Source: Desulfobacteraceae bacterium
Lineage (GTDB): Bacteria > Desulfobacterota > Desulfobacteria > Desulfobacterales > Desulfosarcinaceae
Length of the DNA stretch: 64,000 nucleotides
Direction of reading: 5' to 3'
Assembly: GCA_024230435.1 (NCBI GenBank)
Contig: JAAERL010000139.1
Coordinates: forward strand, 6,339-70,338
The position numbers and the translations under genes were made by a program. Positions within the stretch are counted from its first letter, which is position 1. Every line of letters begins with the position of its first letter. The notes under the pieces were generated by a model. It saw only the letters and a list, made by a program, of their open reading frames with translations. It had not been told where the DNA came from and ran no database searches. Below, in pieces: positions 5,212 through 64,000 of this stretch.

Positions 5212-5250
5212 TTTTGCAGCCGATTTAATAATTCCCAAACAGGCTCTAAG
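5212..5250 (+). repeat. repeat family C right-end copy (solo or degenerate)
   Basis: TTTTGCAGCCGATTTAATAATTCCCAAACAGGCTCT (5212-5247) is identical over 36 nt to 57934-57969, just upstream of vgrG. Weaker similarity extends back to about 5165. Confidence 0.65.
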
Positions 5251-5415: not shown

Positions 5416-6213
5416 ATGTCTTATTATAAAACACAAGACGGTTGCCGCCTTTATTATGAACTGCTTGGCGATGGTCCGGCAAAGCCTTTGATTACGTTTG
5501 TCAATGGTACGTTGCAAACAACTGTTTATTGGAAATTGGTGAGCAATGGCTTTACCGGCAGGTTTCGTATTTTATTGTATGATTGCCGGGGCCAGGGCGA
5601 AAGTGATATCGGGCAGTTGCCTTTATCTCTAAAACTGCACGCTTGTGATTTGAAAGATCTGCTTTTTGATTTAGACGTTAATGAAAGTATTGTGGTAGGT
5701 CTTAGCCACGGCGCCCGGACTGCATTGACTTTAGCGGATCAGGCTCCCGAACTGATTTCAAAAATGGTTCTGTGCAGTATTTCCACCAGTTCAAATTTCA
5801 GGGCTAAAATGATTGTACGTTCCTGGTATGAAATTCTTCAACGGCATAGACTTGATGCCATGGTTTGGGCTGCATTACCTTTTGTTTTCGGTACAAGATT
5901 TTTAAAAAAAAATGAAAAGCAGCTTGACCGGATCGTAAAAACCATTGTCCGGCGAAATAAAACAGATGCTCTGCGCCTTCACTTGGAGGCGATGCAAAAA
6001 TACACGCCACTGTCCTCGAATTTATACCCCATGCCGTTTCCGGTTCTGGTTCTTACCGGTGAAGATGACCCGCTGGTCACTGTACAAGGTGCACAACAGG
6101 TAGCAGATATCACCGGAGGGCGTCATGTGGAATTTAAAAATATGGGTCATTCTCTGGCTGCGGAGGATCCGGGGCAATTTGTTCAAATTGTGTACGAGTT
6201 CATAAATGGATAG
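5416..6213 (+). CDS. alpha/beta hydrolase
   Basis: 265-aa ORF. Nucleophile elbow GLSHGA, C-terminal MGHSLAAEDP histidine region, and a typical length for the fold. Confidence 0.75.
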   Translation: MSYYKTQDGCRLYYELLGDGPAKPLITFVNGTLQTTVYWKLVSNGFTGRFRILLYDCRGQGESDIGQLPLSLKLHACDLKDLLFDLDVNESIVVGLSHGARTALTLADQAPELISKMVLCSISTSSNFRAKMIVRSWYEILQRHRLDAMVWAALPFVFGTRFLKKNEKQLDRIVKTIVRRNKTDALRLHLEAMQKYTPLSSNLYPMPFPVLVLTGEDDPLVTVQGAQQVADITGGRHVEFKNMGHSLAAEDPGQFVQIVYEFING

Positions 6214-15217: not shown

Positions 15218-15799
15218 ATGAATATTATAATCCCTAAAAAGATTCCTGAATGGTTACATGATGAGGTAAAGGAATATTTTATCACTTTACAATTTGAGCC
15301 AGAGACCATTTTAGATATTGGTGCGAATATAGGGGCATTCGCTTATCAGGCACACAGGAAATGGCCACAAGCTCAAATGGTTTGTTGCGAACCGATGCCA
15401 TTCAATGTTTGCTGCCTTCGACAAAATGTTTCTGCCACCAACACGACGATCATATCCGCAGCAGTCCGTGAGCATAGCGGAGTCGATGAGATATTCATCG
15501 GTAACAATTTTGTGACGGGCGGGTTTGTTGACTTTGGCAGGCAAACGCAGCGAAAAATTTTAGTTGAGTGCATCGCGGCAAAAGAATTACCTTCCTGCGA
15601 ACTATTGAAAATCGATACGGAAGGTTGTGAGGTAGAGATTTTAAAGAATCTTCTCTTAAACAAAACGCATGCAATTTTTATTGAGCATCACAGCCGAGCT
15701 GATGCGGAGACAATCAAAGCAATGCTGTCAACAGACTTTGACTTGATCGGTGGCGATTCTGGTAAAGCGATTGGGACGTTCAAATTCTTAAGGAGATGA
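15218..15799 (+). CDS. FkbM family methyltransferase
   Basis: ILDIGANIGAFAY (SAM-binding) and LLKIDTEGCEVEIL are the characteristic FkbM-family motifs. Confidence 0.8.
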   Translation: MNIIIPKKIPEWLHDEVKEYFITLQFEPETILDIGANIGAFAYQAHRKWPQAQMVCCEPMPFNVCCLRQNVSATNTTIISAAVREHSGVDEIFIGNNFVTGGFVDFGRQTQRKILVECIAAKELPSCELLKIDTEGCEVEILKNLLLNKTHAIFIEHHSRADAETIKAMLSTDFDLIGGDSGKAIGTFKFLRR

Positions 15800-16172
15800 A
15801 CGTTCCTAAGCCCGAGAATAAAAAGGGGCTTGGTTTTAATATCGTCTACTAACTATGAGGCATTCAGGCCATTGTTTGATATCTCGCTGAATCTATATAT
15901 TTTATTCAACAAAATCTATAAGCGTTGAATCACAATGGCTCAAGTTAAAACCAAGCCCATAAAAAGTTTTATCCGAAACCTGCTTTCCGCGCCACTTAAG
16001 GTGCAAAATCCCCGGTTTTGCTTGTCCTGATTTTTGTTTTTATTTTTTTAAGCCTTTGAAAAACATACCTAAATCCTACATGAAACACCTCGCGTGAACT
16101 TCCACGCTCTTTTTAAAAAAACAATCCTAAACAAATCGAGTTGTTGCGCTCATCTGTTGAGTTGAAGAATCT

Positions 16173-17170
16173 ATGAAAGAACGAAATGGGACAGTTTTGG
16201 TAATCGGCGGCACCGGCTATATTGGCAGCCATATGGTTAAGCTGCTAACCGAAAGCGGCCGTAAGCTGTTTGTGCTTGATGACCTTTCAACCGGCCATCG
16301 CAGTTTGTTAAACAGTTGTAAACATATTGTGGGAAAATTAGGCGATAGAGAGCTGCTAAAACACATTTTTAATGAAAATGAAATTATAGCGGTAATGCAT
16401 TTTGCTGCCTATTCGCTGGTGGGAGAGTCTGTTTCATCCCCATTGAAATACTATATAAACAATATCACTGAAACGATAGCTCTTCTTGAGGAGATGATAA
16501 ACCATGGGCCAATGAAATTTATCTTTTCCTCAACTGCGGCAGTCTATGGCGAGCCGAAACAAACACCAATCGTAGAAAATCATCCCTGTCGGCCAACCAA
16601 TCCTTATGGTTCGACGAAATTATGTATCGAAAAGCTGCTGAGACAATGCGATCAAGCGTATGGTTTGAAATTTATTTGCCTTCGTTATTCAATGCAGCCG
16701 GAGCAGATCCGTCTGCAACGATAGGAGAGATGCACTCGCCTGAAACTCATCTGATTCCATTGGTTCTAAAGAGCGCTATGTCCAATACGCCGATACAAAT
16801 TTTTGGGACCGACTACCCGACCCAAGACGGGACCTGTATACGTGATATGTACATGTCAATGAATTTAGCTCAGGCGCGTTTACTTGCCTTGGATGAGCTT
16901 TTGAATGATGGCCCGAGTCGTATTTACAATCTTGGCAATAATAGCGGCTATTCAGTACGCCAAGTTATTGAAGCCGCAAGATTGGTGACGGGCAAACGCA
17001 TTTACATAGTAGAAAAGTGCCGGCGGCCAGGCGACCCGGCGATTTTGGTTGTCAATGCAGACAAAATCAAACGGGAATTGAACTGGCGCCCTGTTTATAA
17101 GGACTTGGAAACTATTATCGAAACAGCATGGAAGTGGGAATTGTTTCGCAAATCGTCAAACCTCATCTGA
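16173..17170 (+). pseudogene. galE: UDP-glucose 4-epimerase, frameshifted
   Basis: Two overlapping ORFs (16173-16724 in frame 0, 16622-17170 in frame 2) together give a full GalE: VIGGTGYIGSH, the YGSTK catalytic YxxxK, and [19 protein letters not shown]. The expected [11 protein letters not shown] reads LRYS-MQPEQ because one T is missing in CGTTATTC at about 16687-16689. Confidence 0.8.
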
Positions 17171-18959: not shown

Positions 18960-18963
18960 GGGT

Positions 18964-19130
18964 TTTTGAAGCTGTAAAATTTCACTCTTGTTCATCTTGA
19001 TTTATATGCCTTTTGAATTCGTTTTTCTCTGTTGCTACGATGGGCAAAGACGGTGAGTATGCAATGATTTTTGTTTTTTGAAAACAAATCCAAAACCGGC
19101 GCAATAACGGTATATTTACAGCTTCAAAGG
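18964..19130 (+). repeat. repeat family B, copy B1 (second MITE-like imperfect palindrome)
   Basis: TTGAAGCTGTAAAATTTCAC...GAATTCGTTTTT...GAGTATGC...GAAAACAAATCCAAAACCGGCGCAATAACGGTATATTTACAGCTTCAAAGG. It starts 5 nt after the wecB stop and is homologous to 35023-35189 and 36858-37027. Confidence 0.75.
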
Positions 19131-19218
19131 CTCTTGGTGCGCCGATGGGCAGTGTTTGGCGGCACAAGCCCGTATTAGTTCAGTTTGTACCAGAGAGTAA
19201 TTTTAAACGAGGTAATTG

Positions 19219-19942
19219 GTGAAACACGTACGAAGTATTTTTGTGACGGGATTAATTGGTGTTTGCTTTTTTTTTGCCGGAACATTCATTTATGCTTTTA
19301 AAAAACAGTGTTCAGTGGAAAAAGACAACGCCTTTAACAAGTGATGAAGTGCTTTTCAATCCGGGAATGGGATTGTATCTTCATTTTTCTTCCTTCGATG
19401 CTGATGCGAATGAATGGTTTATGAAGATTTTAAATATCGTTTACTTTTGTACGTAATGGGCTGATCTTAGGCCCGCAGCTGAGAAAGAAGGGCGCCACAT
19501 GGTAATTACTATCTTAAAAATTCCGGCATATTTTATAACATCCGACAGCCAGCGTATTCCTATTGAAAGTAAATGGCGAAATGACGGTATGGCTCCAACT
19601 AATGGCAGCTATGTCGTAGAGTGGACGCTGCATAATTCAGAGGGCGAAATCGCCGCCTCGGCTCAGGTGCTTCCAGCCATACCCACGGCACAGTGGACGC
19701 CAGGAGAAGATATTGAATTATCATCAGTGCTTGAAGTGCCGGCCGGTTTGCCCGAAGGCGCTTACACAATCAAAGTGGCCTTGGTTTCTCCGGAGTCCGG
19801 TGAATATATCATGCTTGGTCTTGCAGGCCGGGACAGTGAAAAAAGATATAAATTATGCACGATCAATGGCTCGGACAAAGCTTTCATTAGCAAGGCCGGT
19901 TCAATTTATGAAGAGGCTTTCGAAAGCGGTTACGGTCAATAG
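19219..19942 (+). pseudogene. remnant of a DUF4874/DUF4832-like glycoside-hydrolase-fold gene
   Basis: A signal-anchor ORF from GTG 19219 ends at TGA near 19340. A shifted frame then gives LFNPGMGLYL...IVYFCT, an in-frame TAA (19454-19456), then WADLRP. The same frame continues into 19499-19942 with a DUF4832-type C-terminus. The total is far too short for the family, which implies an internal deletion. Confidence 0.45.
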
Positions 19943-20373
19943 AATGCTATTGAGCGAATGCATATTCGCATAAATTCACAGAAGGTTCATGAGACAAGCG
20001 GTTTAATGGATCTGTTAGCCCGGCGTTAAGCCACGCCACGATTCCGGTGACCGATAATGTTTCTTTGTTCGCTAAATGCAAATTGGCCGCCTGGATGCGT
20101 GTTGACGAGGTTTTTCCGGAAAAACGCGGCCCCTGCATGAAATTTGCCTTCAAAACGGCAGCAGGCAATTTTATATCTAATGCCAACACCAATTTTATGA
20201 TGTTACAAATCCGGGCCAATGGCAGCAAATGGTCTCTGTGGCCGAAGCGCCCGTAAATGCAGGCCAAATCATTTTGGCTGTTCGGACAGGTGAAAACTTT
20301 TTGATGTAAAACTGGAAATGGTTCAAGATTAATTCGTTAATCTGCTACGAGTGTATCGGTAAATAACATCAGC

Positions 20374-34793: not shown

Positions 34794-34955
34794 GGCGATT
34801 GGCGGAAAAGAATATACCAGATTGAGCAGGATTTTTTTTCGTATTCAAGGCGTGCCAAAGTTTGCATACTTAACGTATTCGCATCTTTGGCATAACGCAG
34901 AAGACGGGAAAAAAGACATACAAGATGGTATATTCTTTAACAGAAATCGCCTAAG
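34790..34955 (+). repeat. repeat family A, long copy A4
   Basis: TTAAGGCGATTGGCGGAAAAGAATATACCAGATTGAGCAGG...GATGGTATATTCTTTAACAGAAATCGCCTAAG. Its first bases contain the aminotransferase TAA stop (34791-34793). Confidence 0.85.
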
Positions 34956-35271: not shown

Positions 35272-36840
35272 ATGAGTACTTTGCCAAAACCTAATCCCTG
35301 GTGGATGCCTGTTATGCTAATTGCAGCAGCTTTAATATATAGCTACCGGGCGACAATTGATGGGTTGGTTCATCAATGGCTAAATAATGATGACTATTCA
35401 CATGGGATGCTCATTGTTCCCATTTGTATATACTTAGCCTGGCAGCGCCACGATCAGCTCGCGCAAACGCCCAGGTACACAGACTGGCGCGGTTTGCCAT
35501 TGCTGGTATTTTCGGTTGTGACATTTGTTTTGGGCGAGCTGGGCGCTGAGGTCTTTACCACGCGAATATCCCTGATTTTATGCTTTATCGCATCATTGTG
35601 GCTGCTTTATGGATTTGAGGTGATCAGGGTTCTGACGTTTCCCCTGGCGTTTTTGTTCATGATGTTGCCTTTGCCAGGCCTAATTTATCGCAATATTACG
35701 TTTCCTTTACAATTGATATCTTCCAAATGGTCGGTGAAATTTTTGCAGCTTTGTGGAATGATGGCTTACGCAGAGGGCAATATTATCGATTTGGGCTACG
35801 CGCAGTTTCAGGTGGTTGAAGCGTGCAGCGGACTGCGCTTTATTCTTGCGTTGTTTACCCTGGGAATATTTTTTGCGTTCTGGACCCCCAAGCCCCTTTG
35901 GAAGCGTGTTATATTGGTGGCCGCTACCGTTCCCATTGCCATGATCGCCAATATCATGCGCATTGCCGGAACCGGGTTGCTTGCAAAATTTTGGGGCGAG
36001 ACTGCCGCGCAAGGCTTTTTTCATAGCTTTTCCGGCTGGGGCATATTTATGATCAGTTTTATTTTTTTTTTCGGACTGAATGTGTTTTTAGGGCTTTTTT
36101 CCAAAGATAACGAATATGTTGAAAAAAAAAAGGCCGCTAAGAATATCGAAAATAAGAATATCGAAAAAAAGAATATCGAAAAAACCAATTCAAAGAATGC
36201 CGCCATTGCCATAACCGCCCTTGGATTGACTCTTTTATTGATCTTAACGGCGCCGTCGGTGGCGGACTTTTTTGGCAAGGTGCCGCCACAATCATTAAAA
36301 AAACCTCTTAAATCTTTTCCACTTAAGATACAAGGCCGCACCGGCACAGTAAAAATAATGGATCCCTTATTATGGAAGAGGGTCGGCGGGCAGCAATATT
36401 TTATGGCTGATTATCGCACAACCGGCAAACCGTTGATTAGTTTTTATGTAGCTTATTATGAATATCAACGCAAAGGCGGTGATTTTATTCATAGCCCCAA
36501 ACTTTGTCTGCCCGGATCCGGTTGGTATATTGAAACGAGTGATAAACGCGTGATCAGCAACGAGCAAGCCGGGCTTGAATTTAAAGAGATGATAGCCCAA
36601 AGGCTAGGCCGCAAACAGTTGGTCTATTATTGGTATCAGGGGCGCAGCCGCAATTTTACAAACGAGTTTGCCGCCAAATTCTGGATGGTGTGGGATGGCA
36701 TATGGCGTCGCCGCACCGATGGAGCTCTTGTAAGAGTTATTACTTCCATAACAGACGGCCAGCCGCTAAATCAGTCCCGCAAGGTTTTAGATCGGTTCGC
36801 TTTGGATGTTTCAGAGCAATTAAATCAATTTTTGCCCTAA
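35272..36840 (+). CDS. exosortase (EpsH-type) fused to C-terminal EpsI-family domain
   Basis: Exosortase hallmarks: NDDYSHGMLIVP, VVEACSGLRF (catalytic Cys) and ANIMRIAGTG (Arg). After a KNIE-repeat linker comes an EpsI-type domain with HSPKLCLPGSGW. RBS GAGGAG is upstream. Confidence 0.85.
   Translation: MSTLPKPNPWWMPVMLIAAALIYSYRATIDGLVHQWLNNDDYSHGMLIVPICIYLAWQRHDQLAQTPRYTDWRGLPLLVFSVVTFVLGELGAEVFTTRISLILCFIASLWLLYGFEVIRVLTFPLAFLFMMLPLPGLIYRNITFPLQLISSKWSVKFLQLCGMMAYAEGNIIDLGYAQFQVVEACSGLRFILALFTLGIFFAFWTPKPLWKRVILVAATVPIAMIANIMRIAGTGLLAKFWGETAAQGFFHSFSGWGIFMISFIFFFGLNVFLGLFSKDNEYVEKKKAAKNIENKNIEKKNIEKTNSKNAAIAITALGLTLLLILTAPSVADFFGKVPPQSLKKPLKSFPLKIQGRTGTVKIMDPLLWKRVGGQQYFMADYRTTGKPLISFYVAYYEYQRKGGDFIHSPKLCLPGSGWYIETSDKRVISNEQAGLEFKEMIAQRLGRKQLVYYWYQGRSRNFTNEFAAKFWMVWDGIWRRRTDGALVRVITSITDGQPLNQSRKVLDRFALDVSEQLNQFLP
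36139..36183 (+). repeat. in-frame 15-nt tandem repeat x3 in the exosortase/EpsI linker
   Basis: AAGAATATCGAAAAT / AAGAATATCGAAAAA / AAGAATATCGAAAAA encodes KNIEN-KNIEK-KNIEK. Confidence 0.9.
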
Positions 36841-40962: not shown

Positions 40963-41129
40963 TAAGGAGATTGGCGGAAAAGAATATACCAGATTGGCCT
41001 CGATTTTTTTTCGTCTTCAAGGCGTGCCAAAGTTTGCATACTTTACGTATTCGCACCTTTGGCATAACTTAAGAAGACGGGAAAAAAGACATGCAAGATG
41101 GTATATTCTTTAACTGTAAATTGCTTTAG
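40963..41129 (+). repeat. repeat family A, long copy A5
   Basis: TAAGGAGATTGGCGGAAAAGAATATACCAGATTGGCCTCGATTTTTTTTCGTCTTCAAGGCGTGCCAAAGTTTGCATACTTTACGTATTCGCACCTTTGGCATAAC...GATGGTATATTCTTTAACTGTAAATTGCTTTAG. Confidence 0.85.
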
Positions 41130-41216
41130 CAAAAAGCCTATGCCATTTTCTGATTTTAAATATATACCTTTTAATTAGAGATGAGAAATATAACTAAAAG
41201 ATAATAGGTGGAGAAA

Positions 41217-46031: not shown

Positions 46032-47249
46032 ATGGTAAGGAAAAAAGTTATGCTGCATGGGAGGCCGCGAAGTAAAACAGCGAAATCTTTTTGCATGTTT
46101 TGTATCACGGTTTTCTTTCTATTGGTATTGGCGATAGACTCGCATGCCTTTGAAACAGGCGACAATTTTGTCCCGCATAACACGGCGAGTAGGTTTATGA
46201 GGCGCTACGAGCAGATGGGCAACAATGAACACATCACCTATCCTGTCCGCGTCTATGGTACGGGAATTTCCGATATCGAAGCGGAGGAATTTATTGAGCA
46301 TATGTCGGTGGCGGTGTCCTACATGACGGAAAGTATGTACAATCATTATGGTTTTATGGTCAAGAGTGTCACTTTTACTCTCGAAGCAAATAGTGAAGGT
46401 CCCAGCACATCAGGTGATCCAATGCCGTTAAATATTCAGGTTGGAAACCCATGGGCAATGGGTTATGCAAACAATAATCTCTTTTTGCCCGAATCCTGGG
46501 CGCTTAACCCTGATTATACGACTTCTGGACTATATCATGAATTTGCTCATCATTTCTTGCTTCGTCACCTTGACTTAAACGACGGGTATTTTCCTCGTTC
46601 CACGATGGACACTCCTAGTGGCGATGTTCCGACAGAATACCTCTGTTGGGGGGGAGACGATCTGGCAGGAGCGATACATATGTGGCGTTATACCAATGAT
46701 CCAGATGCGCCTCAGTGTCCAGAGTTTTACACCCTGGAGACTGTCGGAGTTACTTCTGGGAGTTTTCCCGATGCACAACCCTACCCCGAAGGTACATGGA
46801 GATGCGATCCAGACAGGGAAGATCGGTATGGAATGCAGCTTCAAAACATAGAGGACGGAAGATGCGTGGAAGGACCAGATAGCAATGATGGGACAAATGC
46901 CTCAATGGCTGCCTGCAATTATGAAGACACCAAACAGCAATGGGATTTGCTGGCAGATGACGATGGCTCTTTCCGGATCAGAAACGTTGACAACGGTAAG
47001 TGTATGCAAGTAAGAGACGGATCCCTTTCAAGTGGGGCAATCATCGAACAACACACATGTAACGCCGCAACTTCGGATGATGCAATACAAAAATTCTACC
47101 CGATTGCTGATGGAAGTGGTAATTACTCGCTTCGCGTAGAATTGGGCGGGCGGTTTGTCGAAGTTTCTGGTGACGGCGTCATTCAAGAAACCCCCAATGG
47201 CGCTAATATCCAAAGATGGAACATATCGTCTGACATTGATACAGAATAG
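46032..47249 (+). CDS. secreted HExxH metallopeptidase-like protein with C-terminal ricin-type beta-trefoil lectin domain
   Basis: Signal peptide, HEFAHH (nt 46536-46553), and a C-terminal ~130 aa with three QxW-like repeats (KQQWDL, IQKFYP, IQRWNI) plus GKCM/GRCV motifs. RBS AAGGAG is upstream. Confidence 0.6.
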   Translation: MVRKKVMLHGRPRSKTAKSFCMFCITVFFLLVLAIDSHAFETGDNFVPHNTASRFMRRYEQMGNNEHITYPVRVYGTGISDIEAEEFIEHMSVAVSYMTESMYNHYGFMVKSVTFTLEANSEGPSTSGDPMPLNIQVGNPWAMGYANNNLFLPESWALNPDYTTSGLYHEFAHHFLLRHLDLNDGYFPRSTMDTPSGDVPTEYLCWGGDDLAGAIHMWRYTNDPDAPQCPEFYTLETVGVTSGSFPDAQPYPEGTWRCDPDREDRYGMQLQNIEDGRCVEGPDSNDGTNASMAACNYEDTKQQWDLLADDDGSFRIRNVDNGKCMQVRDGSLSSGAIIEQHTCNAATSDDAIQKFYPIADGSGNYSLRVELGGRFVEVSGDGVIQETPNGANIQRWNISSDIDTE

Positions 47250-49187: not shown

Positions 49188-49251
49188 ATTAGGCAATTAG
49201 AAATTACTGACTTTGGAGCGAACAAAGTGACAGTCAAATGCCAAACAGGCT

Positions 49252-49429
49252 CTAAGGCGATTGGCGGAAAAAGCATAGCATCTTAACAGATACCATATTG
49301 GGCTTAGATTTTTTTTCGTCTTCAAGCCATGCCAAAGTTTGCTGATCAGTTTGCATGTTTAAAGTATTCGCAGCATTGGCATAACACAAAAGACGGGAAA
49401 AAAGACATGCTTAACACAAATCGCCTAAG
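49252..49429 (+). repeat. repeat family A, long copy A6 (variant arms), abutting a family C terminus
   Basis: The sequence reads CCAAACAGGCTCTAAGGCGATTGGCGGAAAAAGC...ATACCATATTGGGCTTAGATTTTTTTTCGTCTTCAAGCCATGCCAAAGTTTGCTGATCAGTTTGCAT...AAATCGCCTAAG, where the first 11 nt (49241-49251, CCAAACAGGCT) are the abutting family C terminus. Confidence 0.8.
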
Positions 49430-55771: not shown

Positions 55772-55814
55772 AGCTTGTTTGCTAAAATCTTCTATTTTCC
55801 AAACAGGCTCTAAG
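55768..55814. repeat. repeat family C, minimal form (termini only)
   Basis: AAAGAGCTTGTTTG, 17 nt, then CCAAACAGGCTCTAAG. It overlaps the end of the adjacent short A copy. Confidence 0.55.
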
Positions 55815-55847: not shown

Positions 55848-57527
55848 ATGACGCCAATGGATCGTATCAAAGCGCTACTCAACACTATTTACGGCGCGCA
55901 GGCCGCTGGCGCCGTATTTGATAAAATTTTACCGGTTATTGAAAAATATTCAGTTCAAAAGCGTAAAAAAGAAACTTTTTTTTCTCACCAAGATGTGATT
56001 CTGATCACTTATGCGGACTCGCTCAACAATCAGGGGAGCCCGGCGCTGGAAACACTGCGCCACTTTGCAAAGCAATACCTTAAAGAAACTATCAGCGATA
56101 TTCACTTTCTGCCTTTTTTCCCATACTCCTCGGATGACGGATTCTCGGTTATGGATTTTTGCCAAATTCGTCCCGATTTAGGCAACTGGGATGATGTGCA
56201 AGCCATCGGCCGGGATTTCGGCCTGATGTTTGATTTTGTCGTCAATCATTTTTCATCCCAAAGCCAATGGTTCAAAAACTACCTGGAGGCAAAGCCGGGA
56301 TTTGAACACTTTGCCATCGAGGTTGACCCTTCGGCCGATTTGTCCCTGGTTACAAGGCCAAGATCGTTACCTGTTTTATCCGAGTATAAAAAAAACGATG
56401 GTCAAACGGTTCATCTGTGGACCACATTCAGCGAAGATCAAATTGATTTGAATTATTGCAGCCCGGATGTGCTTGCAACGATGATTGATGTTTTGCTGTT
56501 TTATACGTCAAAGGGAGCTACGATCCTTAGAATGGACGCGATTGCCTATTTGTGGAAACAAATCGGCACAACATGTATTCACCTTGCCCAAACCCATGAT
56601 ATGGTAAAGCTTTTCCGGGCTGTATTAGATCTGGTTGCCCCGGATGTCATCATTATAACTGAAACCAATGTGCCCCATGCTGAAAACATCACGTATTTCG
56701 GAGATGGACGCAATGAAGCCCAAATGGTTTACAATTTTACGCTGCCTCCATTGCTGCTTTATACGTTTCTGGAACAAGATGTTTGCATGTTGTCACAATG
56801 GGCCAAAGGATTATCGCTTGAGCCGGAAAACAATACCTTTTTTAATTTTACCGCCTCCCATGATGGAATTGGCGTCCGGCCCCTGGAAGGGATTTTGCCC
56901 TCCAGCGAAATTGAAAAACTCATCAATGCCGCCAACCGCTGCGGCGGCAATGTGTCCTGGAAACAAAATTCAGATGGCTCGCAAAGCCCATATGAATTGA
57001 ATATTACCTATCTCGACGCTATTTTGGCAGACCAAAGCTCTGAAAAAACGGAAAAATTTTTGGCCTCCCAGGCGATTCAATACGTTTTGCCAGGCGTGCC
57101 GGCCACTTATATCCACAGCTTATTAGGTTCGAGAAACTGGCAAGAAGGTGTTTTGGAAACATCCAGAGCAAGGAGCATCAATCGTGAAAGGCTATGGGTC
57201 GAGGATGTGATCAGGCAACTGAACAATCCGGAATCCTTTCGAGCGCGGATTTTTTTCCCCTACCTGGAGTTAATCCGGATCCGGCGCAAGCAAAAGGCCT
57301 TTAATCCCAATGCAGGCTTTGAGATCCTTGATCTGGATTCAAAACTATTTTGCATTAAACGCCATTGTGAAACCCAAACAATTTACGCCATCACAAATAT
57401 TTCATCCCAGCCGGTTTCGGTAGATCTGCCCGTGCAAAAATCAAAAGATCTGATTACAGGACAGATTGCAGAGGCAACGTCCTTTAAGCTCAAACCGTAT
57501 CAATACGTGTGGCTTGAACAAAAATAA
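55848..57527 (+). CDS. GH13 sucrose phosphorylase-family sugar phosphorylase
   Basis: Motifs ILITYADSL, HFLPFFPYSSDDGFSVMDF, FDFVVNHFS, ILRMDAIAYLWK, IIITETNVPH and FTASHDGIGVRP are present. The start MTPMDR has a GGGGAGGAGA RBS at 55831-55840. Confidence 0.85.
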   Translation: MTPMDRIKALLNTIYGAQAAGAVFDKILPVIEKYSVQKRKKETFFSHQDVILITYADSLNNQGSPALETLRHFAKQYLKETISDIHFLPFFPYSSDDGFSVMDFCQIRPDLGNWDDVQAIGRDFGLMFDFVVNHFSSQSQWFKNYLEAKPGFEHFAIEVDPSADLSLVTRPRSLPVLSEYKKNDGQTVHLWTTFSEDQIDLNYCSPDVLATMIDVLLFYTSKGATILRMDAIAYLWKQIGTTCIHLAQTHDMVKLFRAVLDLVAPDVIIITETNVPHAENITYFGDGRNEAQMVYNFTLPPLLLYTFLEQDVCMLSQWAKGLSLEPENNTFFNFTASHDGIGVRPLEGILPSSEIEKLINAANRCGGNVSWKQNSDGSQSPYELNITYLDAILADQSSEKTEKFLASQAIQYVLPGVPATYIHSLLGSRNWQEGVLETSRARSINRERLWVEDVIRQLNNPESFRARIFFPYLELIRIRRKQKAFNPNAGFEILDLDSKLFCIKRHCETQTIYAITNISSQPVSVDLPVQKSKDLITGQIAEATSFKLKPYQYVWLEQK

Positions 57528-57556
57528 AAAAAAATAGATAGCAATTATCTTAAAAA

Positions 57557-57602
57557 GGGCCAATTGGGTTAGATCAAACTATCAATCCAATTGGCCCTTT
57601 TT
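57557..57602 (+). terminator. rho-independent terminator
   Basis: GGGCCAATTGG (57557-57567) pairs with CCAATTGGCCC (57587-57597) around a 19-nt loop, followed by TTTTT. It lies 30 nt after the phosphorylase stop. Confidence 0.6.
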
Positions 57603-57805
57603 ATATGGTAATAGCTTCAAGCCTTCTATGAAGTTGACGATCACTTCGAATAATGCTAACTCATCGCTTTTGTTAAAAAAGCGATGCAACAGAAAAATCA
57701 TTATACTTTTTGTTCACAATTGGGGAAATTGCGAAACGGCTGCGGAACCGAACCTGACAGATATGGAACCTGCCTGCAAAAAGCCGCACGCGACACGAAA
57801 TGCTT

Positions 57806-57972
57806 TTAGAGCTTGTTTGGGAAATAGAAAATTTAGCGAAAAAGTGCGAGGGCGAGGTCAAAATGTCTCAAATTTGAAATGAATAGCCGGTCTATTTGTC
57901 GAAAATTTGCGTCATTTTGGACCGTTCCCGCGCTTTTGCAGCCGATTTAATAATTCCCAAACAGGCTCTTAA
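57806..57972 (+). repeat. repeat family C, full copy (about 167 bp, terminal inverted repeats)
   Basis: The left end TTAGAGCTTGTTTGGGAAAT is inverted relative to the right end AATTCCCAAACAGGCTCTTAA. The right 36 nt are identical to 5212-5247. The element ends 18 nt before the vgrG ATG. Confidence 0.65.
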
Positions 57973-57990
57973 ACTTCACCGGAGGTTTAT

Positions 57991-60900
57991 ATGCTCACAC
58001 TCAACGCCAATGAGTCCCGGTTCTTGTTCAGGATTCTGGAAAAAGACTTTCTCGTTATCAGCTTTAACGCATCAGAGTCGGTATCAAATCTGTATGAAGT
58101 AAAATTGGAATTGGCGGCAAAGGACAACATCACTATAGATGATTTTTTAGGCAAGCCGTGCCTGCTGACAATAAAAGGCGACAAAGGCGGGCGCTATTTT
58201 CACGGCATGACCTTCAAAATCATAAAAGCGGGTTACAACGGATCTTTTTATTTATATAAGGTTACCGTGACTGCAATGGCCGCTTTGCTCGAACTGCGCA
58301 AGGATTGCCGGATATTTCAGGATCTGACCGTACCCGAAATCGTTACCCAGGTCATGAAAAACGCCGTAATTCCCCCCGATCTTTACGAGTTCAGGCTGGT
58401 AACCAAGTACCCCAAACGCGAATACTGTGTCCAGTACCGCGAAACCGATCTTCGCTTCATAAAACGGTTGCTGGCCGAAGAAGGCATCTTTTTCTTTTTT
58501 GAACACCAGCGCGACAGGCACCTGATGGTTTTTGGCGACAGCCAAGTCAATTATATGCCCATTGCCGGCAATAGTAAAATCTGCTTAAACCCCGGCGGCT
58601 CGATGGTGGCCGAACAAGAAGCCATCATCGCCTTTAAATGCACAAAGAGCCTAACACCTGGCAGCTACAGCATGTCCGATTATGATTTTGAAAAACCGTC
58701 CGTAGACCTGTACACATGCAGCCAGGCAAAAGAAAACACAGATTTTGCCTGTTATCAGTACCCAGGCAACTACACCGACCGCAAACACGGCGAACGGTTG
58801 AGCCGGGTGCGCCTGGAACAAAAGAGCTTAAAAGCCAGGCAGGCAAAAGGCAAAAGCGTGGTCGTACGCTTTGTGCCGGGTTTTACCTTTCGTGTCCAGG
58901 ATTCGTTTACCGGCAATATCGAAAACACTTACCTGCTTACCCAAATCAGCCATGACGGCCAACAGCCCCAGGTGCTGGCCGAAACAAGCTCCGGCTCACA
59001 AGGGTCAAGCTATGTCAATGAATTTACCGCCGTGCCAGACAGCGTAACCATCCGGCCCGGCTTCGCAGACCTGAAAAAACCTTACATGCCCGAAAACCAG
59101 ACTGCCGTCGTCACCGGTGCAAAGGGCGAAGAAATATACACCGACAGCTACGGCCGCGTAAAAGTGCAATTTCACTGGGACCGGTATGGCAATTACGACG
59201 AAAAAAGCTCGTGCTGGATACGCGTGGGCCAGACGCTGGCAGGCGACGGCTGGGGAAGCCTGTACATTCCGCGCATCGGCCAGCAGGTCCTTGTCTCGTT
59301 TTTTAACAATGATCCCGACCGGCCCATCATTACCGGCTGCCTTTACCACGGAGCCAATGTTGCGCCCTATAAATTGCCCGAACAAAAGACCGTCTCTACC
59401 ATGAAAAGCATGTCGTCTCCCGGCAAAAAAGGCTTCAATGAATTACGGTTTCAGGACCGCAAAGGCTATGAGCAAATCTTTATCCACGGCGAAAAAGACA
59501 TGGACCTGCGGGTTAAAAACGACCGGCGCACCTTTACAGGCAACAACGAGCACACCATCGTGGAAAATGACCGCTATGAGCAAATTAACAATTGCCATCA
59601 CCAGATCATAAAATCCCATAAAATCAAGCAGGTAGACGGCTCCGAATCCCTGACAACCGGCCGTGATTACCAGCACGGCGCCGGAGCCAACTACGCGGTC
59701 AAAGCCGAAGGCAAAATGCATGTCAAGGCCGGATCATCGGCGGTGTTTGAATCTAAAGAATCGGTAACCCTTAAAGTAGGCGCCGCCTTTATTACCGTAG
59801 ACGGCAGCGGTGTCACATTTTCAGGCGCTGATGTCAATTTAAACGGCTCGTCAGCATCGCCGGGCTCAGTTGGAGCAATCAATGTAAAATTGCCCATAAC
59901 CGCCGAGGCCGCCGCCAACGCCCGCCCCGGAAACGTTGAAGCCAACCGGGCCGCTGCCGTGCAGCCTGTTCAGATCCCGCAAGTTAAGTCGGCGCCGTAT
60001 ATTCCAACGCCGTCAGCGGCTTTGGAACCAGCACCGAAAGCCTCATTTTTTTCCGGGCCCCAGGAAATCAAGCACAAGCTGGCCTTAGAAATCGCCGGGA
60101 CAAATACCCGCAACCTTGCAGGCCAATTTTATGTCTTTTCGGAAAACGGCTTTGAAAAACGCCACGGACTCATTGGCGACACAGATGACCACCGGATGGA
60201 AATTTTTATCGATGACCTGCCCGAAGACGACTACCGGTTGGCTTATGAAATAAACGGCATGAAAATCCCCCTCGACCTGAACAACGCCCTTGTCACCTGC
60301 GCCGAAAACGAAAAAAGCGACTGCTGGGAAACTATCCTGGTCCCGATCGTGCCCCGAACCTACAACAGCATCGAGCTTGACCGCCAGGAAGATCACTGCG
60401 ATTGCCCGCGCCAAAACGGATACCTTTACATCTTTGTAAACGGCTTCTTGTGGCGCGAACTGCAAGCCCAAAAACAAGGTCTGTTCAAAGACGTTGACCT
60501 GGCAAATTACAAAACCAAAGACGAACGCATCGCCAGCGGCGCCGAACACGGCTCTATCCTTGTACCTTTTCAGGTAAACGGCGTAAGGCCCGAAATTCAA
60601 ATCTGCTTCTCCGAAGTCCAGTGGTCCTGGGACCAGGTCACCGCCTTAGGCGGTATGGACCCAGAGGACATCCGCCATGAAAAAGGCCTGCAGGCCCAGC
60701 CCTGCGAGGACACCGCAAAAGCAGCCGAATACCGCAGCCAGCGCCTCCAGGTCATCGATTTAAAAGATTACCCCTTCTTTGACCTTAGCTCTTGCACCAC
60801 TATCGGTTTTACCGAAGAAACAAACGCAGACGGCGCAGCGCTTCGCCCGGACCTTGCCGAGTACCAGCAAGCCAAACTGCCCGTTGTGTACCTGCACGAC

Positions 60901-63504
60901 TCGCTGGCCATCGCCGAGTCCCTGCTCGAAGACTATCACGACACGCTTGATCAGTTTCAACAGGTGATCGCGGATCTTCCAAAGCTCGAAAACCTTAAAA
61001 ATCCCGACCCGGCAGTGGCTTCAATGAGTGAACAGGAAAAACAGTACTACTTTAAATCAGCCGCTCTAGCCTACCGCGTCTTTTTCGACAGCCAAACCAC
61101 GGCAAATAAAAAAATGCTCCAGACCGAAGCCATAGAAGAGTTGACGCAAAGCTTCGGCAAAGGCCAGGGCAACTCCATTTTCGGCGGCGGCTTAGGCGAC
61201 TATTCCAAAAAAATGAGCGCTTCCAAACGGCCCAAAATTTTTGAAACCTGCGAAAAACAACTCGACCGCGCAACCCTTGAAGACATCTTACAGGTTGAGA
61301 AAAGAAAAGACTTGCGGACCAAATTGCGCCAAATAAAAACCATCCTGGCCGGTTTTCTCGGCGACACCGTATATGAAAAACCCGCAACAAGCCTGCACCC
61401 CGATTTTATCGGCGTCAACGCCATGCTCAAAGACTTTGCCAACCTCAACGGCAAAGCCTACGGCTTGCTCTGGGCCAAAGCAAACGGGCTATACGGCTTT
61501 TTAAACCACGAGCCCTGCGCCGAAGACCCCGACCTGGACCTTGCAAAAAACATCGCAGCCGAAAGACCCCAAAAAGCCGATCAGGACCCCGGTGTGGCCT
61601 ATTTAAACCGCGTACTATCGGCCGAACACCCCATGCACGCCTGCCTGTTTCCGCCAGACAGCCCTGAATTCGACCTGGCAAACCCGGACTCCGGCCCTGC
61701 GCCCGGACCCGAACCGGCCGACGGCAGCGGGCATTTTCGCCCCGGAGCCTTTGCCATAGCCGTAGACGAATCCGGTAAAGACCAACCGGCAGACAGCAAA
61801 ATTAAAGCAGCCGCGGATTTAACCAAACAATCCGTAGCCTCGCTCATATTGTTTTTCCAACGCCAATGGGCAGCCCTTAAAAAAACCAAACAAACCATAC
61901 GGCTCAACAGCCTGTTTCGCCTTGCAAAAGCCACGCACGCACCGGAGCTGGCGCAAATGCAAACCCTGCCCCCGGGCAGCGTCATCGACCTCGGACCGGA
62001 CGGCGAACACATAATTGCCGGAATAAACAGCCTGAACGTTAAAGGCGTAATAGACACAAAAAAAGACTTTCTAAATGCCCGGCCCGGAAGCTCAACCAAC
62101 CCTGCTTTTGCGCAAAACCAATGCACTATCTACGACCCCAAAACCGGCAAGCCCATCGGCAGCGTCAACCTCGGACAGCTCGGCGTTGAAAAATACAAAG
62201 GCGCACCCATAGAAAAAGTTACCCGCAAACAAGCACTGAAACTATTTGGCCAAGTCATCGAAAAAGAAGGCAACCTCCTTTTAAAAACCAACATCGATGT
62301 TGTCGTATTCCCCAAAAAAAACGAAGTTGCCTTGAAACTCCACAACCCGGAGTATAAAGCCTCCCCCAGCGCCACCCTCGCCTCAAAAGGCCTCCACGCC
62401 GTACGCAAGGGTCTGCCGCCGCTAGTGGCGGTACTGGAGGTGATGAACTTAAGTAGGGCTGCACATGCTTTCTTATTTCAAACGGATGGGTGGGCAAAAA
62501 ATCTATCAATCTTTGCAGCGAGCATGGCCGGCCTTACTCATTGCACCCTGGACGCCATGTGCGCCATTGCCGGAGAAGATGCCGTGGTTAACAGGTTAAA
62601 TGGGTTAAGACCCAGCTTGGGAGAATTTATATTCAAAACAGAAATCAATCTTTTTGGGCACCAGGTTACGGTGTTCAACGCCACAGCCGCTATCATTTCA
62701 GTTGTCAGCGGCGTCCTGCACGCCTGGGATATGATCGACAGCATCAGCGCCGAAGACTATGACTCCGCCACGGGTTACGGCATTGCCGCAGCCGGATCGT
62801 TTGCCCTGGCGCTGACCACTATCGGGGCTTCATCCGCTAAAGCGGGAACCTTTCTTTTCTCTTTAGGCCCCTGGGGCTGGGCCTGCATGGCGGTCTGCTT
62901 CATCGGGGCGTCCATCGCAATTGCCTGCAAGGATACGGACCTGGAAAAATGGGCCAAGCACGGCCCCTTTGCCCTGGATCATGACGACCGGTGGACCCAT
63001 CAGTATGCGTCAAAAGATTCACGGTTTGCCCTGGAAGGCTTAATGGGCCACATGCTCACCCCCAGCGTAAAGATGGCCTACACACAAAACACAGGCCCGG
63101 AAAGCACTTTTCCCGACTCCGTTGTGGAGTGCTATGCGCCCGGATTCGAGTCAGGAGAAAGCGAGCTTGTTGTTCACACGTCAATGGAAAAAACTTACAA
63201 AGCCGATCCCATCATGGGCCGCCCTCAAGATGGCCCCGAAGATTCCGGGCAAGCAATGCAAACGCCTTACCGCATCGAGCAAATCACCAATGATTCACAA
63301 AGTCAGGTCATTGGCGCACGTTTTTATTACAAGGGGTTGGGCCCGGTAAAAACCTGCAGATGGCGCACACGGGTAAGGCATATAAACAAGGAAAATATCA
63401 CCCTTCCCGCGCTTTTGGGCGAAAAAGACGATTACAAGAAAACTGCCATTGAAACCATGCAAAAAGGCTGGGTTTACGCGGAACTTTGGGGAGAAGATAA
63501 TTAA
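57991..63504 (+). CDS. vgrG: type VI secretion VgrG spike protein with ~1200-aa C-terminal VasX-like membrane-toxin extension
   Basis: The N-terminal ~640 aa is canonical VgrG: FRILEKDF..YRETDLRFIKRLLAEEGIFFFFEH, then gp5 OB GRVKVQFHWDR, WIRVGQTLAGDGWGSLYIPRIGQQVLVSFFNNDPDRPIITGCLYH, then beta-helix repeats. After aa ~640 come a Pro/Ala linker, GYLYIFVNGFLWRELQ and LPVVYLHDSLAIAESLLEDY, and a hydrophobic helix cluster at nt ~62400-62940. RBS GGAGG is upstream. Confidence 0.9.
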   Translation: MLTLNANESRFLFRILEKDFLVISFNASESVSNLYEVKLELAAKDNITIDDFLGKPCLLTIKGDKGGRYFHGMTFKIIKAGYNGSFYLYKVTVTAMAALLELRKDCRIFQDLTVPEIVTQVMKNAVIPPDLYEFRLVTKYPKREYCVQYRETDLRFIKRLLAEEGIFFFFEHQRDRHLMVFGDSQVNYMPIAGNSKICLNPGGSMVAEQEAIIAFKCTKSLTPGSYSMSDYDFEKPSVDLYTCSQAKENTDFACYQYPGNYTDRKHGERLSRVRLEQKSLKARQAKGKSVVVRFVPGFTFRVQDSFTGNIENTYLLTQISHDGQQPQVLAETSSGSQGSSYVNEFTAVPDSVTIRPGFADLKKPYMPENQTAVVTGAKGEEIYTDSYGRVKVQFHWDRYGNYDEKSSCWIRVGQTLAGDGWGSLYIPRIGQQVLVSFFNNDPDRPIITGCLYHGANVAPYKLPEQKTVSTMKSMSSPGKKGFNELRFQDRKGYEQIFIHGEKDMDLRVKNDRRTFTGNNEHTIVENDRYEQINNCHHQIIKSHKIKQVDGSESLTTGRDYQHGAGANYAVKAEGKMHVKAGSSAVFESKESVTLKVGAAFITVDGSGVTFSGADVNLNGSSASPGSVGAINVKLPITAEAAANARPGNVEANRAAAVQPVQIPQVKSAPYIPTPSAALEPAPKASFFSGPQEIKHKLALEIAGTNTRNLAGQFYVFSENGFEKRHGLIGDTDDHRMEIFIDDLPEDDYRLAYEINGMKIPLDLNNALVTCAENEKSDCWETILVPIVPRTYNSIELDRQEDHCDCPRQNGYLYIFVNGFLWRELQAQKQGLFKDVDLANYKTKDERIASGAEHGSILVPFQVNGVRPEIQICFSEVQWSWDQVTALGGMDPEDIRHEKGLQAQPCEDTAKAAEYRSQRLQVIDLKDYPFFDLSSCTTIGFTEETNADGAALRPDLAEYQQAKLPVVYLHDSLAIAESLLEDYHDTLDQFQQVIADLPKLENLKNPDPAVASMSEQEKQYYFKSAALAYRVFFDSQTTANKKMLQTEAIEELTQSFGKGQGNSIFGGGLGDYSKKMSASKRPKIFETCEKQLDRATLEDILQVEKRKDLRTKLRQIKTILAGFLGDTVYEKPATSLHPDFIGVNAMLKDFANLNGKAYGLLWAKANGLYGFLNHEPCAEDPDLDLAKNIAAERPQKADQDPGVAYLNRVLSAEHPMHACLFPPDSPEFDLANPDSGPAPGPEPADGSGHFRPGAFAIAVDESGKDQPADSKIKAAADLTKQSVASLILFFQRQWAALKKTKQTIRLNSLFRLAKATHAPELAQMQTLPPGSVIDLGPDGEHIIAGINSLNVKGVIDTKKDFLNARPGSSTNPAFAQNQCTIYDPKTGKPIGSVNLGQLGVEKYKGAPIEKVTRKQALKLFGQVIEKEGNLLLKTNIDVVVFPKKNEVALKLHNPEYKASPSATLASKGLHAVRKGLPPLVAVLEVMNLSRAAHAFLFQTDGWAKNLSIFAASMAGLTHCTLDAMCAIAGEDAVVNRLNGLRPSLGEFIFKTEINLFGHQVTVFNATAAIISVVSGVLHAWDMIDSISAEDYDSATGYGIAAAGSFALALTTIGASSAKAGTFLFSLGPWGWACMAVCFIGASIAIACKDTDLEKWAKHGPFALDHDDRWTHQYASKDSRFALEGLMGHMLTPSVKMAYTQNTGPESTFPDSVVECYAPGFESGESELVVHTSMEKTYKADPIMGRPQDGPEDSGQAMQTPYRIEQITNDSQSQVIGARFYYKGLGPVKTCRWRTRVRHINKENITLPALLGEKDDYKKTAIETMQKGWVYAELWGEDN

Positions 63505-63506
63505 AA

Positions 63507-64000
63507 ATGGATATCGAAACAATCATCAAAAACGGCTATTATGGACCCCATGCCTACAACAGCAACACTGTTGACGATCTACCGCCCATAGACAACAGCG
63601 GATTGCGCAAAACAACGCGCATGGCTCGCAAAACCGCTTTGCCCAGGCGCACCTGCGTTCAGTGCACTGAATTATTAGCTGCCGACCGGCCGTATACTAT
63701 TGAAGCTCTTAATTCAGATAACCCGGAAATAAAAAAATTGATCAATGCCCCCGGCCATGAAATGCAATTTTGGCAGTCGTTGAGCAACCCAAGGGCTATT
63801 GTGGACGTGTTAACCAGAGCGTTTTGTTTTTTCATGTGGATCGGATTGATTGGTGTACCTATTTTTTCGATATTAGTTTTACTCATAAAACCAGACAGGC
63901 TCTTAGAACCCAAATATTACGTTTTTTTTGTTGGGCCATATGCTGTCTGTGCCCTTTTACATTACACAGGCAAATACGTCCTGAAAAAAGATTGGGTCAA
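63507..64000 (+). CDS. small membrane protein, candidate cognate immunity protein (partial, runs off window)
   Basis: The ATG lies 2 nt after the vgrG stop. The frame is open to the window end (164 codons, absent from the ORF track because no stop is reached). Two predicted TM helices (FCFFMWIGLIGVPIFSILVLLI; YYVFFVGPYAVCALLHY). Confidence 0.5.
   Translation, partial: MDIETIIKNGYYGPHAYNSNTVDDLPPIDNSGLRKTTRMARKTALPRRTCVQCTELLAADRPYTIEALNSDNPEIKKLINAPGHEMQFWQSLSNPRAIVDVLTRAFCFFMWIGLIGVPIFSILVLLIKPDRLLEPKYYVFFVGPYAVCALLHYTGKYVLKKDWV

Follow-up and report, generated by a model that had tools for sequence, protein, structure and literature searches.

Specialised VgrG proteins such as VgrG1-ACD and VgrG3 of V. 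cholerae and VgrG2b of P. aeruginosa carry, behind the spike, enzymes of about 300–500 amino acids (aa) (actin cross-linking, peptidoglycan hydrolase, metallopeptidase). The category as such has been described (PMC9602870). Another group of type VI secretion system (T6SS) cargo is formed by VasX of V. cholerae, Tke5 of P. putida (PDB 9R8G) and Ptx2 of P. aeruginosa (PDB 9qpv), in which the parts follow a common order: a MIX-type N-terminal domain comes first, a large scaffold of helices next, then some five hydrophobic helices rich in Gly and Ala, and last a C-terminal domain rich in beta structure (Ig-like or beta-rich in Ptx2 and Tke5). These toxins are loaded via a DUF4123 (Tap) adaptor, and recent structures of the family show that the MIX domain binds Tap and that Tap binds VgrG. 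They act from the periplasm; the proton-motive force is lost and the transmembrane domain (TMD) relocates (PMC13133200 for Tke5). Here, a gene that appears to unite the two designs was analyzed in a 64,000-nucleotide (nt) stretch of DNA, hereafter the window, from a Desulfobacteraceae bacterium (assembly GCA_024230435.1, contig JAAERL010000139.1, positions 6,339 to 70,338). With a probability of about 0.75, this gene encodes an intact VgrG joined by a linker of ca. 75 residues to a full-length membrane-depolarising toxin of the VasX/BTH_I2691 family, and forms with a downstream immunity gene a horizontally acquired cassette.

The open reading frame (ORF; 57991..63504, + strand) starts with ATG, is preceded by GGAGG at a distance of 7 nt and encodes 1837 aa without interruption; its product is deposited, from a contig of 70,678 nt, as MCP4745158.1 under the annotation 'type VI secretion system tip protein VgrG [Desulfobacteraceae bacterium]'. 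An earlier interpretation made from the nucleotide letters (hereafter the sequence-only reading) had described a textbook VgrG of some 640 aa, continued by about 1200 aa without a stop and opening with a Pro/Ala-rich linker, and all three statements were borne out. Pfam profiles Phage_GPD (aa 29–325, 273.6 bits), Phage_base_V (aa 384–452, 56.1 bits) and Gp5_trimer_C (aa 469–578, 93.1 bits) matched the first part, as did TIGR03361 (aa 16–520, 580.8 bits against a cut-off of 186, E 2.3e-174) and TIGR01646 (396.9 bits against a cut-off of 121.8, E 1.4e-118). With scores far above the curated cut-offs, aa 1 to about 620 are thus identified as a complete T6SS spike protein VgrG (TssI). Between aa 620 and 700 the composition is 21% Ala and 13.6% Pro. 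The linker is disordered in an AlphaFold2 (AF2) model covering aa 641–1837, in which extension residue 1 corresponds to aa 641: the predicted local distance difference test score (pLDDT) is below 50 for extension residues 1–50 (aa 641–690). The linker does not align among the fused relatives described below, whereas the VgrG and toxin parts flanking it do. The in-frame extension beyond the beta-helix is homologous to stand-alone T6SS toxins (aa 695–1837), and the protein can be classed as a specialised ('evolved') VgrG effector made up of a complete VgrG and a C-terminal toxin extension. With VgrG1-ACD, VgrG3 and VgrG2b it shares the complete VgrG core, the effector extension placed after the beta-helix, a gene located outside the core cluster and, as where those effectors are antibacterial, an immunity gene alongside, here a candidate. 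Unlike theirs, its extension is a multi-domain, predicted membrane-inserting toxin of about 1140 aa that retains an N-domain of its own, of the kind found in cargo effectors.

The nature of the extension was analyzed by profile searches, hydrophobicity and structure modelling. Pfam VasX_N (PF20249) matched aa 809–924 (E 1.4e-5, 25.7 bits against a gathering score of 27), and precomputed database annotation assigns PF20249 to the fusion protein. NCBIfam BTH_I2691_fam (NF041559) matched aa 1469–1673 (E 1e-14 to 2e-14, 53.1–54.2 bits), and the same model also matched 20 of 23 aligned relatives, with a best E-value of 1.6e-24. An exhaustive search of 1.84 billion representatives retrieved 418 clusters with E-values of at most 1e-3, of which 63 reached 1e-30 or lower. 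Both VasX-type motifs quoted in the sequence-only reading are present, GYLYIFVNGFLWRELQ from aa 810, within the VasX_N match, and LPVVYLHD from aa 963. Its cluster of Gly/Ala-rich hydrophobic helices at nt ~62400–62940 was recovered by Kyte–Doolittle analysis as five segments (aa 1478–1496, 1507–1526, 1557–1579, 1593–1616 and 1627–1647; nt 62422–62931), and Tke5 likewise has five predicted transmembrane (TM) segments. The AF2 model of the extension (mean pLDDT 70.9, predicted template-modelling score (pTM) 0.63) begins with the disordered linker and a beta-rich N-domain, continues with a long stretch of helices and an insert of low confidence, and ends with very long helices and a beta domain at the C-terminus, an arrangement that agrees with the one described for Ptx2 and Tke5; the very long helices, at extension residues 819–1017, lie over the hydrophobic segments. 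When this model was compared with the PDB by Foldseek, the sole significant match was P. aeruginosa Ptx2 (9qpv), with E 2e-8, a probability of 1.00 and 1276 alignment columns. Compared with VasX, Tke5 and Ptx2, the window toxin has an additional beta-sandwich ahead of its MIX-like region as well as the low-confidence insert of about 110 residues (aa 1331–1443).

Several results weigh against this reading. Neither curated family model reached its cut-off, VasX_N lying at 25.7 bits below 27 and NF041559 at about 53 bits below 150, and the NF041559 match is restricted to profile positions 653–844 of 858. TM-scores to Ptx2 were low (0.27/0.30), with an identity of about 11%. Low TM-scores are expected since the protein is flexible and multi-domain; the authors of the Ptx2 structure reported that AlphaFold and cryo-EM disagree on the TMD, which the prediction puts outside the scaffold. 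Searches of PDB sequences with the single sequence or with a 23-sequence profile gave no VasX-family entry, the profile picking up just VgrG and PAAR-like entries by way of N-terminal domains in the aligned relatives, so that the link to Ptx2 comes solely from the fold search. Likewise, the N-domain modelled alone, although well predicted (pLDDT 89.1, pTM 0.87), gave no Foldseek match in the PDB at E ≤ 0.001, and neither Ptx2 nor Tke5 was among the 50 matches listed. Since both family models remained below their cut-offs, aa 695–1837 are classified, as far as sequence and predicted fold allow, as a distant member of the VasX/BTH_I2691 family of pore-forming T6SS toxins and not as a textbook member. 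With this qualification, the profile searches, hydrophobicity analysis and structure model agree with the VasX-like extension first proposed.

Residues of the MIX motifs, described as shhPhR, hRxGhhYhh and hhF/YSxxxWS/T with GxxY invariant (PMC12909789, PMC9602870), were looked for in the N-domain. The third motif is exact (ICFSEVQWS, aa 871–879), and GYLY (aa 810–813) supplies the GxxY. The central motif is one residue longer in the window protein (PRQNGYLYIF) and exact in relatives (PRQGYIYIF, PRPGWIYIY); the first is approximate (LVPIVPR). Across 23–25 homologues, G810, Y813 and QWSW are invariant or nearly so. Because the fold search with this domain returned nothing significant, the term MIX-like is used on account of the motifs and the sub-threshold Pfam match.

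To assess whether the fusion is genuine, 170 relatives were collected, with 61 loci from genomes (a species-representative set) and 7 from metagenomes; 73 loci entered the immunity scan described below. BLAST detected a VgrG N-terminus in four relatives (P0001, P0002, P0005 and P0011), which form one clade, and a PAAR-like DUF4150 N-terminus in 27; the other 139 had neither. The VgrG fusion is hence much rarer than the DUF4150 one, and it was present in none of the 61 genome loci and none of the 7 metagenome loci. The latter came from a scan seeded with the N-domain of the fused clade, and in six of the seven a PAAR-like gene lies directly 5' of the effector. The three further VgrG-fused homologues are on independent contigs from two samples. 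Their VgrG halves are 51% (P0002, P0011) and 37% (P0005) identical to that of the window protein, and their toxin halves 50% (P0002) and 34% (P0005), P0011 being similar through the N-domain only. In all four proteins the sequence resumes behind the linker with HKLA[LV]E[IV]AG. The parallel divergence of VgrG and toxin halves indicates, at the level of the protein sequences, one old and maintained fusion, and speaks against an assembly join.

These data bear directly on the possibility that a vgrG and an adjacent stand-alone effector gene were merged through an error of assembly or through loss of a stop codon by an indel. The source is a contig of a metagenome-assembled genome, and in two Marinobacter loci (L059 and L060) a vgrG is followed by an effector ORF in another frame, an arrangement that a single indel could fuse. 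Yet the same fusion, with a linker alike in length and character and the same restart, recurs at 35–51% identity on three contigs from two other samples, and the VgrG and toxin halves of the window gene have the same unusual GC content at third codon positions (GC3; 60.5% and 60.3%, respectively). On these two grounds an assembly chimera, which we regard as scarcely credible, was rejected.

P0002 and P0011 (loci L062 and L064, both from JGI sample 3300076802) share 95% identity up to aa 967 and are unrelated beyond it. This pattern led us to conclude that VgrG, linker and N-domain together behave, to judge from the sequences compared, as a delivery module onto which toxins can be exchanged. 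The fusion has been seen before as an architecture: the Tke5 paper lists 61 domain architectures of the BTH_I2691 family, with VgrG already among the N-terminal domains (PMC13133200), and PAAR–MIX fusions have been described (PMC5666596). A literature search found no experimental characterisation of a VgrG–VasX-type fusion. The statement in the sequence-only reading that such an architecture was not known as characterised therefore stands as regards experimental work, but its novelty was overstated. The architecture is a rare one that combines two well-known parts and has been catalogued before.

Some further details of these loci were noted. The point at which the P0002 and P0011 toxins diverge lies directly after the conserved LPVVYLHD motif, and the genes 3' of the two differ, the one after P0011 having a faint DUF6708 match. 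Behind the immunity gene of L063 lies a fragment of a second effector N-domain, which shares 54% identity with aa 806–918 of the window protein. In Marinobacter L059 (2–4359) and L060, the vgrG and effector ORFs overlap by 45 nt with no adaptor between them, and the C-terminal half of the VgrG is 45% identical to that of the window protein; this pair could represent the unfused precursor arrangement.

An ORF begins at 63507, 2 nt past the vgrG–toxin stop codon, and runs beyond the end of the window. No Pfam family was detected in it. The available part has a strong TM segment at aa ~101–130 followed by a second hydrophobic stretch, and is 52% and 29% identical to the ORFs found 3' of the fused relatives in L062 and L063, respectively. 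An iterative hidden Markov model search seeded with the 328-aa L063 protein, encoded at 15251–16237, recovered 63 ORFs of this family in 35 of the 73 loci, most of them within a few to about 100 nt of the end of the effector homologue, and tandem arrays with up to 7 copies (L008) and 6 copies (L038) were observed. Conserved downstream placement and tandem arrays are typical of T6SS immunity genes, and the ORF at 63507 is a candidate cognate immunity gene. VasX, Tke5 and Ptx2, like the window gene, have a membrane immunity-type gene directly 3'. Arrays of three to seven paralogues 3' of the effector span 13013–22747 in L008, 13555–20372 in L038 and 13016–17798 in L007, and between the immunity paralogues of L008 there is a truncated C-terminus of a second effector. 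Taken with the profile matches, the Ptx2 fold match and the helix cluster, the conserved immunity-type gene accords with the central claim of the sequence-only reading, an orphan evolved VgrG bearing a VasX-like membrane toxin of ~1200 aa.

The immunity gene also bears on the target. A toxin aimed at eukaryotic cells such as grazers, instead of bacteria, would be in keeping with the history of VasX as summarised in the Tke5 paper (PMC13133200) and with the insertion of family members into lipid membranes generally. However, an immunity-type membrane protein encoded directly 3', conserved and often in tandem, is the signature of antibacterial effectors, and an antibacterial activity exerted from the periplasm is described for both Tke5 and Ptx2. 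A eukaryotic target in place of bacteria is thus considered very improbable, dual activity being possible.

How the toxin would be loaded was approached through the genes 5' of its unfused relatives. In ten loci (L007, L009, L010, L013 and L065–L070) the gene directly upstream encodes a PAAR-like DUF4150 protein; in L013 a DUF2169 gene plus vgrG were found farther upstream, and no DUF4123 was detected in the tested upstream ORFs of the relatives. Partners and fusions of DUF4150 (PF13665), including P0006 and P0013–P0016 (P0014 being from Desulfuromonas sp. KJ2020), belong to the same toxin and immunity families, with 29–37% identity to the window toxin. They follow the same design principle, a spike component 5' of the MIX-like N-domain, either fused or as an adjoining gene; in their case the spike part is a PAAR-like tip protein. 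As the unfused relatives adjoin DUF4150, the fusion in the window replaces a PAAR-like loader, and not the Tap adaptor on which VasX, Tke5 and Ptx2 depend. The earlier proposal that covalent fusion removes an adaptor requirement therefore needs adjusting: the loader dispensed with in this clade would be PAAR-like DUF4150, with DUF2169 at one locus.

From the characterised relatives VasX, Tke5 and Ptx2, the following sequence of events is inferred for the specialised VgrG effector. The VgrG part would trimerise on the tip of an Hcp tube belonging to a T6SS whose genes lie elsewhere in the genome, the presence of this apparatus being assumed, and the covalent fusion would stand in for the non-covalent PAAR-like DUF4150 loader of the clade. 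Firing would carry the toxin into a Gram-negative neighbour's periplasm, where the buried hydrophobic helices would leave the scaffold and enter the inner membrane. Once inserted they would form an ion-conducting pore, through which the proton-motive force would collapse, and the downstream membrane protein would shield the producer and its kin. A difficulty for this scheme is the accommodation of three membrane toxins of ~130 kDa on one VgrG trimer. The MIX-like domain has been kept despite the fusion to VgrG and travels with the VgrG module when toxins are exchanged. For these reasons we raise, as a rather unlikely suggestion, that this domain is not just a tag for docking to an adaptor and maybe has an adaptor-independent job, for example in release or hand-over of the toxin at the target membrane, the VgrG trimer carrying three self-shielded toxins without a Tap or PAAR-like chaperone. 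An intact VgrG–toxin fusion that retains a MIX-like domain would provide a natural test of functions of this domain beyond docking, and would reveal, besides, up to what size a membrane toxin can be borne by a spike. It would mean, too, that Desulfobacterota carry orphan spike–toxin–immunity cassettes that move between genomes of differing GC. Otherwise, the protein would be one more, unusually large, case of a specialised VgrG effector.

To the counterpoints given above for the toxin, two must be added at the level of the locus. First, Pfam scans of the 40 remaining ORFs of at least 150 aa and of 10 small intergenic ORFs (mostly the largest ones) revealed no TssA–M, Hcp, PAAR, DUF4123 (Tap), DUF2169 or DUF1795 in the window, as the sequence-only reading had stated; they identified instead an exosortase/exopolysaccharide (EPS) locus, sensor kinases and an amylase. 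Second, in two of the three fused relatives (L062, 751–7225, and L063, 10001–16826) the ORF is broken within the hydrophobic domain, with the remainder in the next ORF. Both facts, together with the foreign base composition described below and the lack of a sigma-70-like promoter in a simple scan of 57400–58100, would suit an inactive relic, that is, an orphan acquired cassette in a genome without a functioning T6SS, whose product is never fired. By contrast, the 5.5-kb ORF of the window is intact, its toxin part aligns throughout with full-length stand-alone homologues, and it has a good ribosome-binding site (RBS) and a tightly coupled immunity ORF. Orphan vgrG–effector islands are, moreover, the norm throughout the fused group of four and again in P0003, the stand-alone relative closest to it; the other three fused genes stand as orphans amid housekeeping genes. 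As to the broken ORFs, the PGI and immunity genes of L062 are split as well, so that assembly indels are the most likely cause rather than decay of these genes. We consider a relic decidedly unlikely, and favour a functional VgrG–toxin fusion.

GC content is 52.1% in the fusion gene, 43.1% in the rest of the window and 34.8% in the acyltransferase gene. GC3, which was given above for the two halves, is 60.3% for the fusion gene as a whole, about 47% in neighbouring genes and 48% in the immunity fragment. The fused and closest stand-alone relatives have 57–62% GC, near that of their own flanks (56–60%). Because GC and GC3 of the window gene exceed those of its surroundings while the relatives match theirs, a Desulfobacterota donor of higher GC is the probable source of the cassette, which would have arrived by horizontal transfer and been partially ameliorated since. 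Hand counts on single 60-nt lines in the sequence-only reading were exact (56.7% at 60001–60060 and 75% at 61681–61740), but overstated the contrast, which for the whole gene is 52.1 versus 43.1%. The features of the cassette are collected in Table 1.

Table 1. Parts of the vgrG–toxin cassette and adjoining elements, in window coordinates.
Feature	Coordinates	Strand	Evidence
Imperfect hairpin of 170 nt directly 5' of the vgrG RBS	57804..57973	+	Inverted repeats I1/I2; RNA fold −81.3 kcal/mol, z = −6.08
VgrG spike module (aa 1–619; gp27-like hub, gp5 OB fold, beta-helix)	57991..59847	+	Pfam and TIGRFAM profile matches
Ala/Pro-rich flexible linker (aa 620–694)	59848..60072	+	Composition; pLDDT <50; unalignable between fused relatives
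N-terminal effector domain (aa 695–940; beta-sandwich, then MIX-like/VasX_N region)	60073..60810	+	Pfam VasX_N; motifs; AF2
Alpha-helical scaffold region (aa ~953–1320)	60847..61950	+	AF2 helices (extension residues 313–680); within full-length Foldseek match to Ptx2 9qpv
Poorly conserved low-confidence insert (aa 1331–1443)	61981..62319	+	pLDDT <50 (extension residues 691–803); alignment consensus mostly undefined
Predicted membrane-inserting (pore-forming) helical domain (aa 1459–1657), five Gly/Ala-rich hydrophobic segments	62365..62961	+	Kyte–Doolittle; AF2; NCBIfam
C-terminal beta-rich domain (aa 1692–1833)	63064..63489	+	AF2 strands (extension residues 1052–1193)
Candidate cognate immunity gene, 5' part (164 codons)	63507..64000, continues past window end	+	Translation; hydrophobicity; homology; synteny

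The hairpin listed in Table 1 matched no Rfam family, and no known regulatory RNA was found in 57400–58100 or in the whole window. An exact second copy of its 3' arm (36 nt, TTTTGCAGCCGATTTAATAATTCCCAAACAGGCTCT) lies at 5212–5247, in an intergenic position 5' of a hydrolase gene at 5416, and the core CCAAACAGGCTCT is also present at 49241–49253 and 55799–55811. The hairpin could represent a structure of the 5'-UTR, a repeat element or a regulatory site shared between loci, and its membership in the gene unit is uncertain. The simple scan of 57400–58100 mentioned above returned no intrinsic terminator either. A candidate sigma-54 promoter 5' of vgrG was dropped on inspection by eye, the spacing of its GG and GC elements being wrong.

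A separate near-perfect palindromic element of ~135 nt occupies at least six intergenic gaps (2356, 17478, 22069 on the − strand, 34797, 40969 and ~49255), several copies lying 5' of genes of the EPS/exosortase locus. The copy at 40975–41140 folds at −59.9 kcal/mol (z = −7.3) and has no Rfam family, the copy at 34797 shows a partial tandem duplication, and the 28-nt core gave 5 matches where 0 were expected. The element looks like a family of repeats of the miniature inverted-repeat transposable element (MITE) or repetitive extragenic palindromic (REP) kind.

Upstream of the cassette lies a large polysaccharide locus (~10800–50300), which includes exosortase EpsH plus DUF3485 (35272–36840), Wzz/GNVR, Poly_export and glycosyltransferases, along with a heparinase II/III-like protein, a TPR protein of 805 aa and, at 46032–47249, a ricin-lectin/CDtoxinA-like protein that looks secreted. 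A gene for an NAD-dependent epimerase/GDP-mannose dehydratase is split into two overlapping ORFs (16173–16724 and 16622–17170); it is a pseudogene with a frameshift, or else the assembly contains an indel here. Finally, a 1.4-kb gap at 18960–20373 contains only a 147-aa ORF (19499–19942), which matches the C-terminal part of DUF4832 and is probably a gene remnant.

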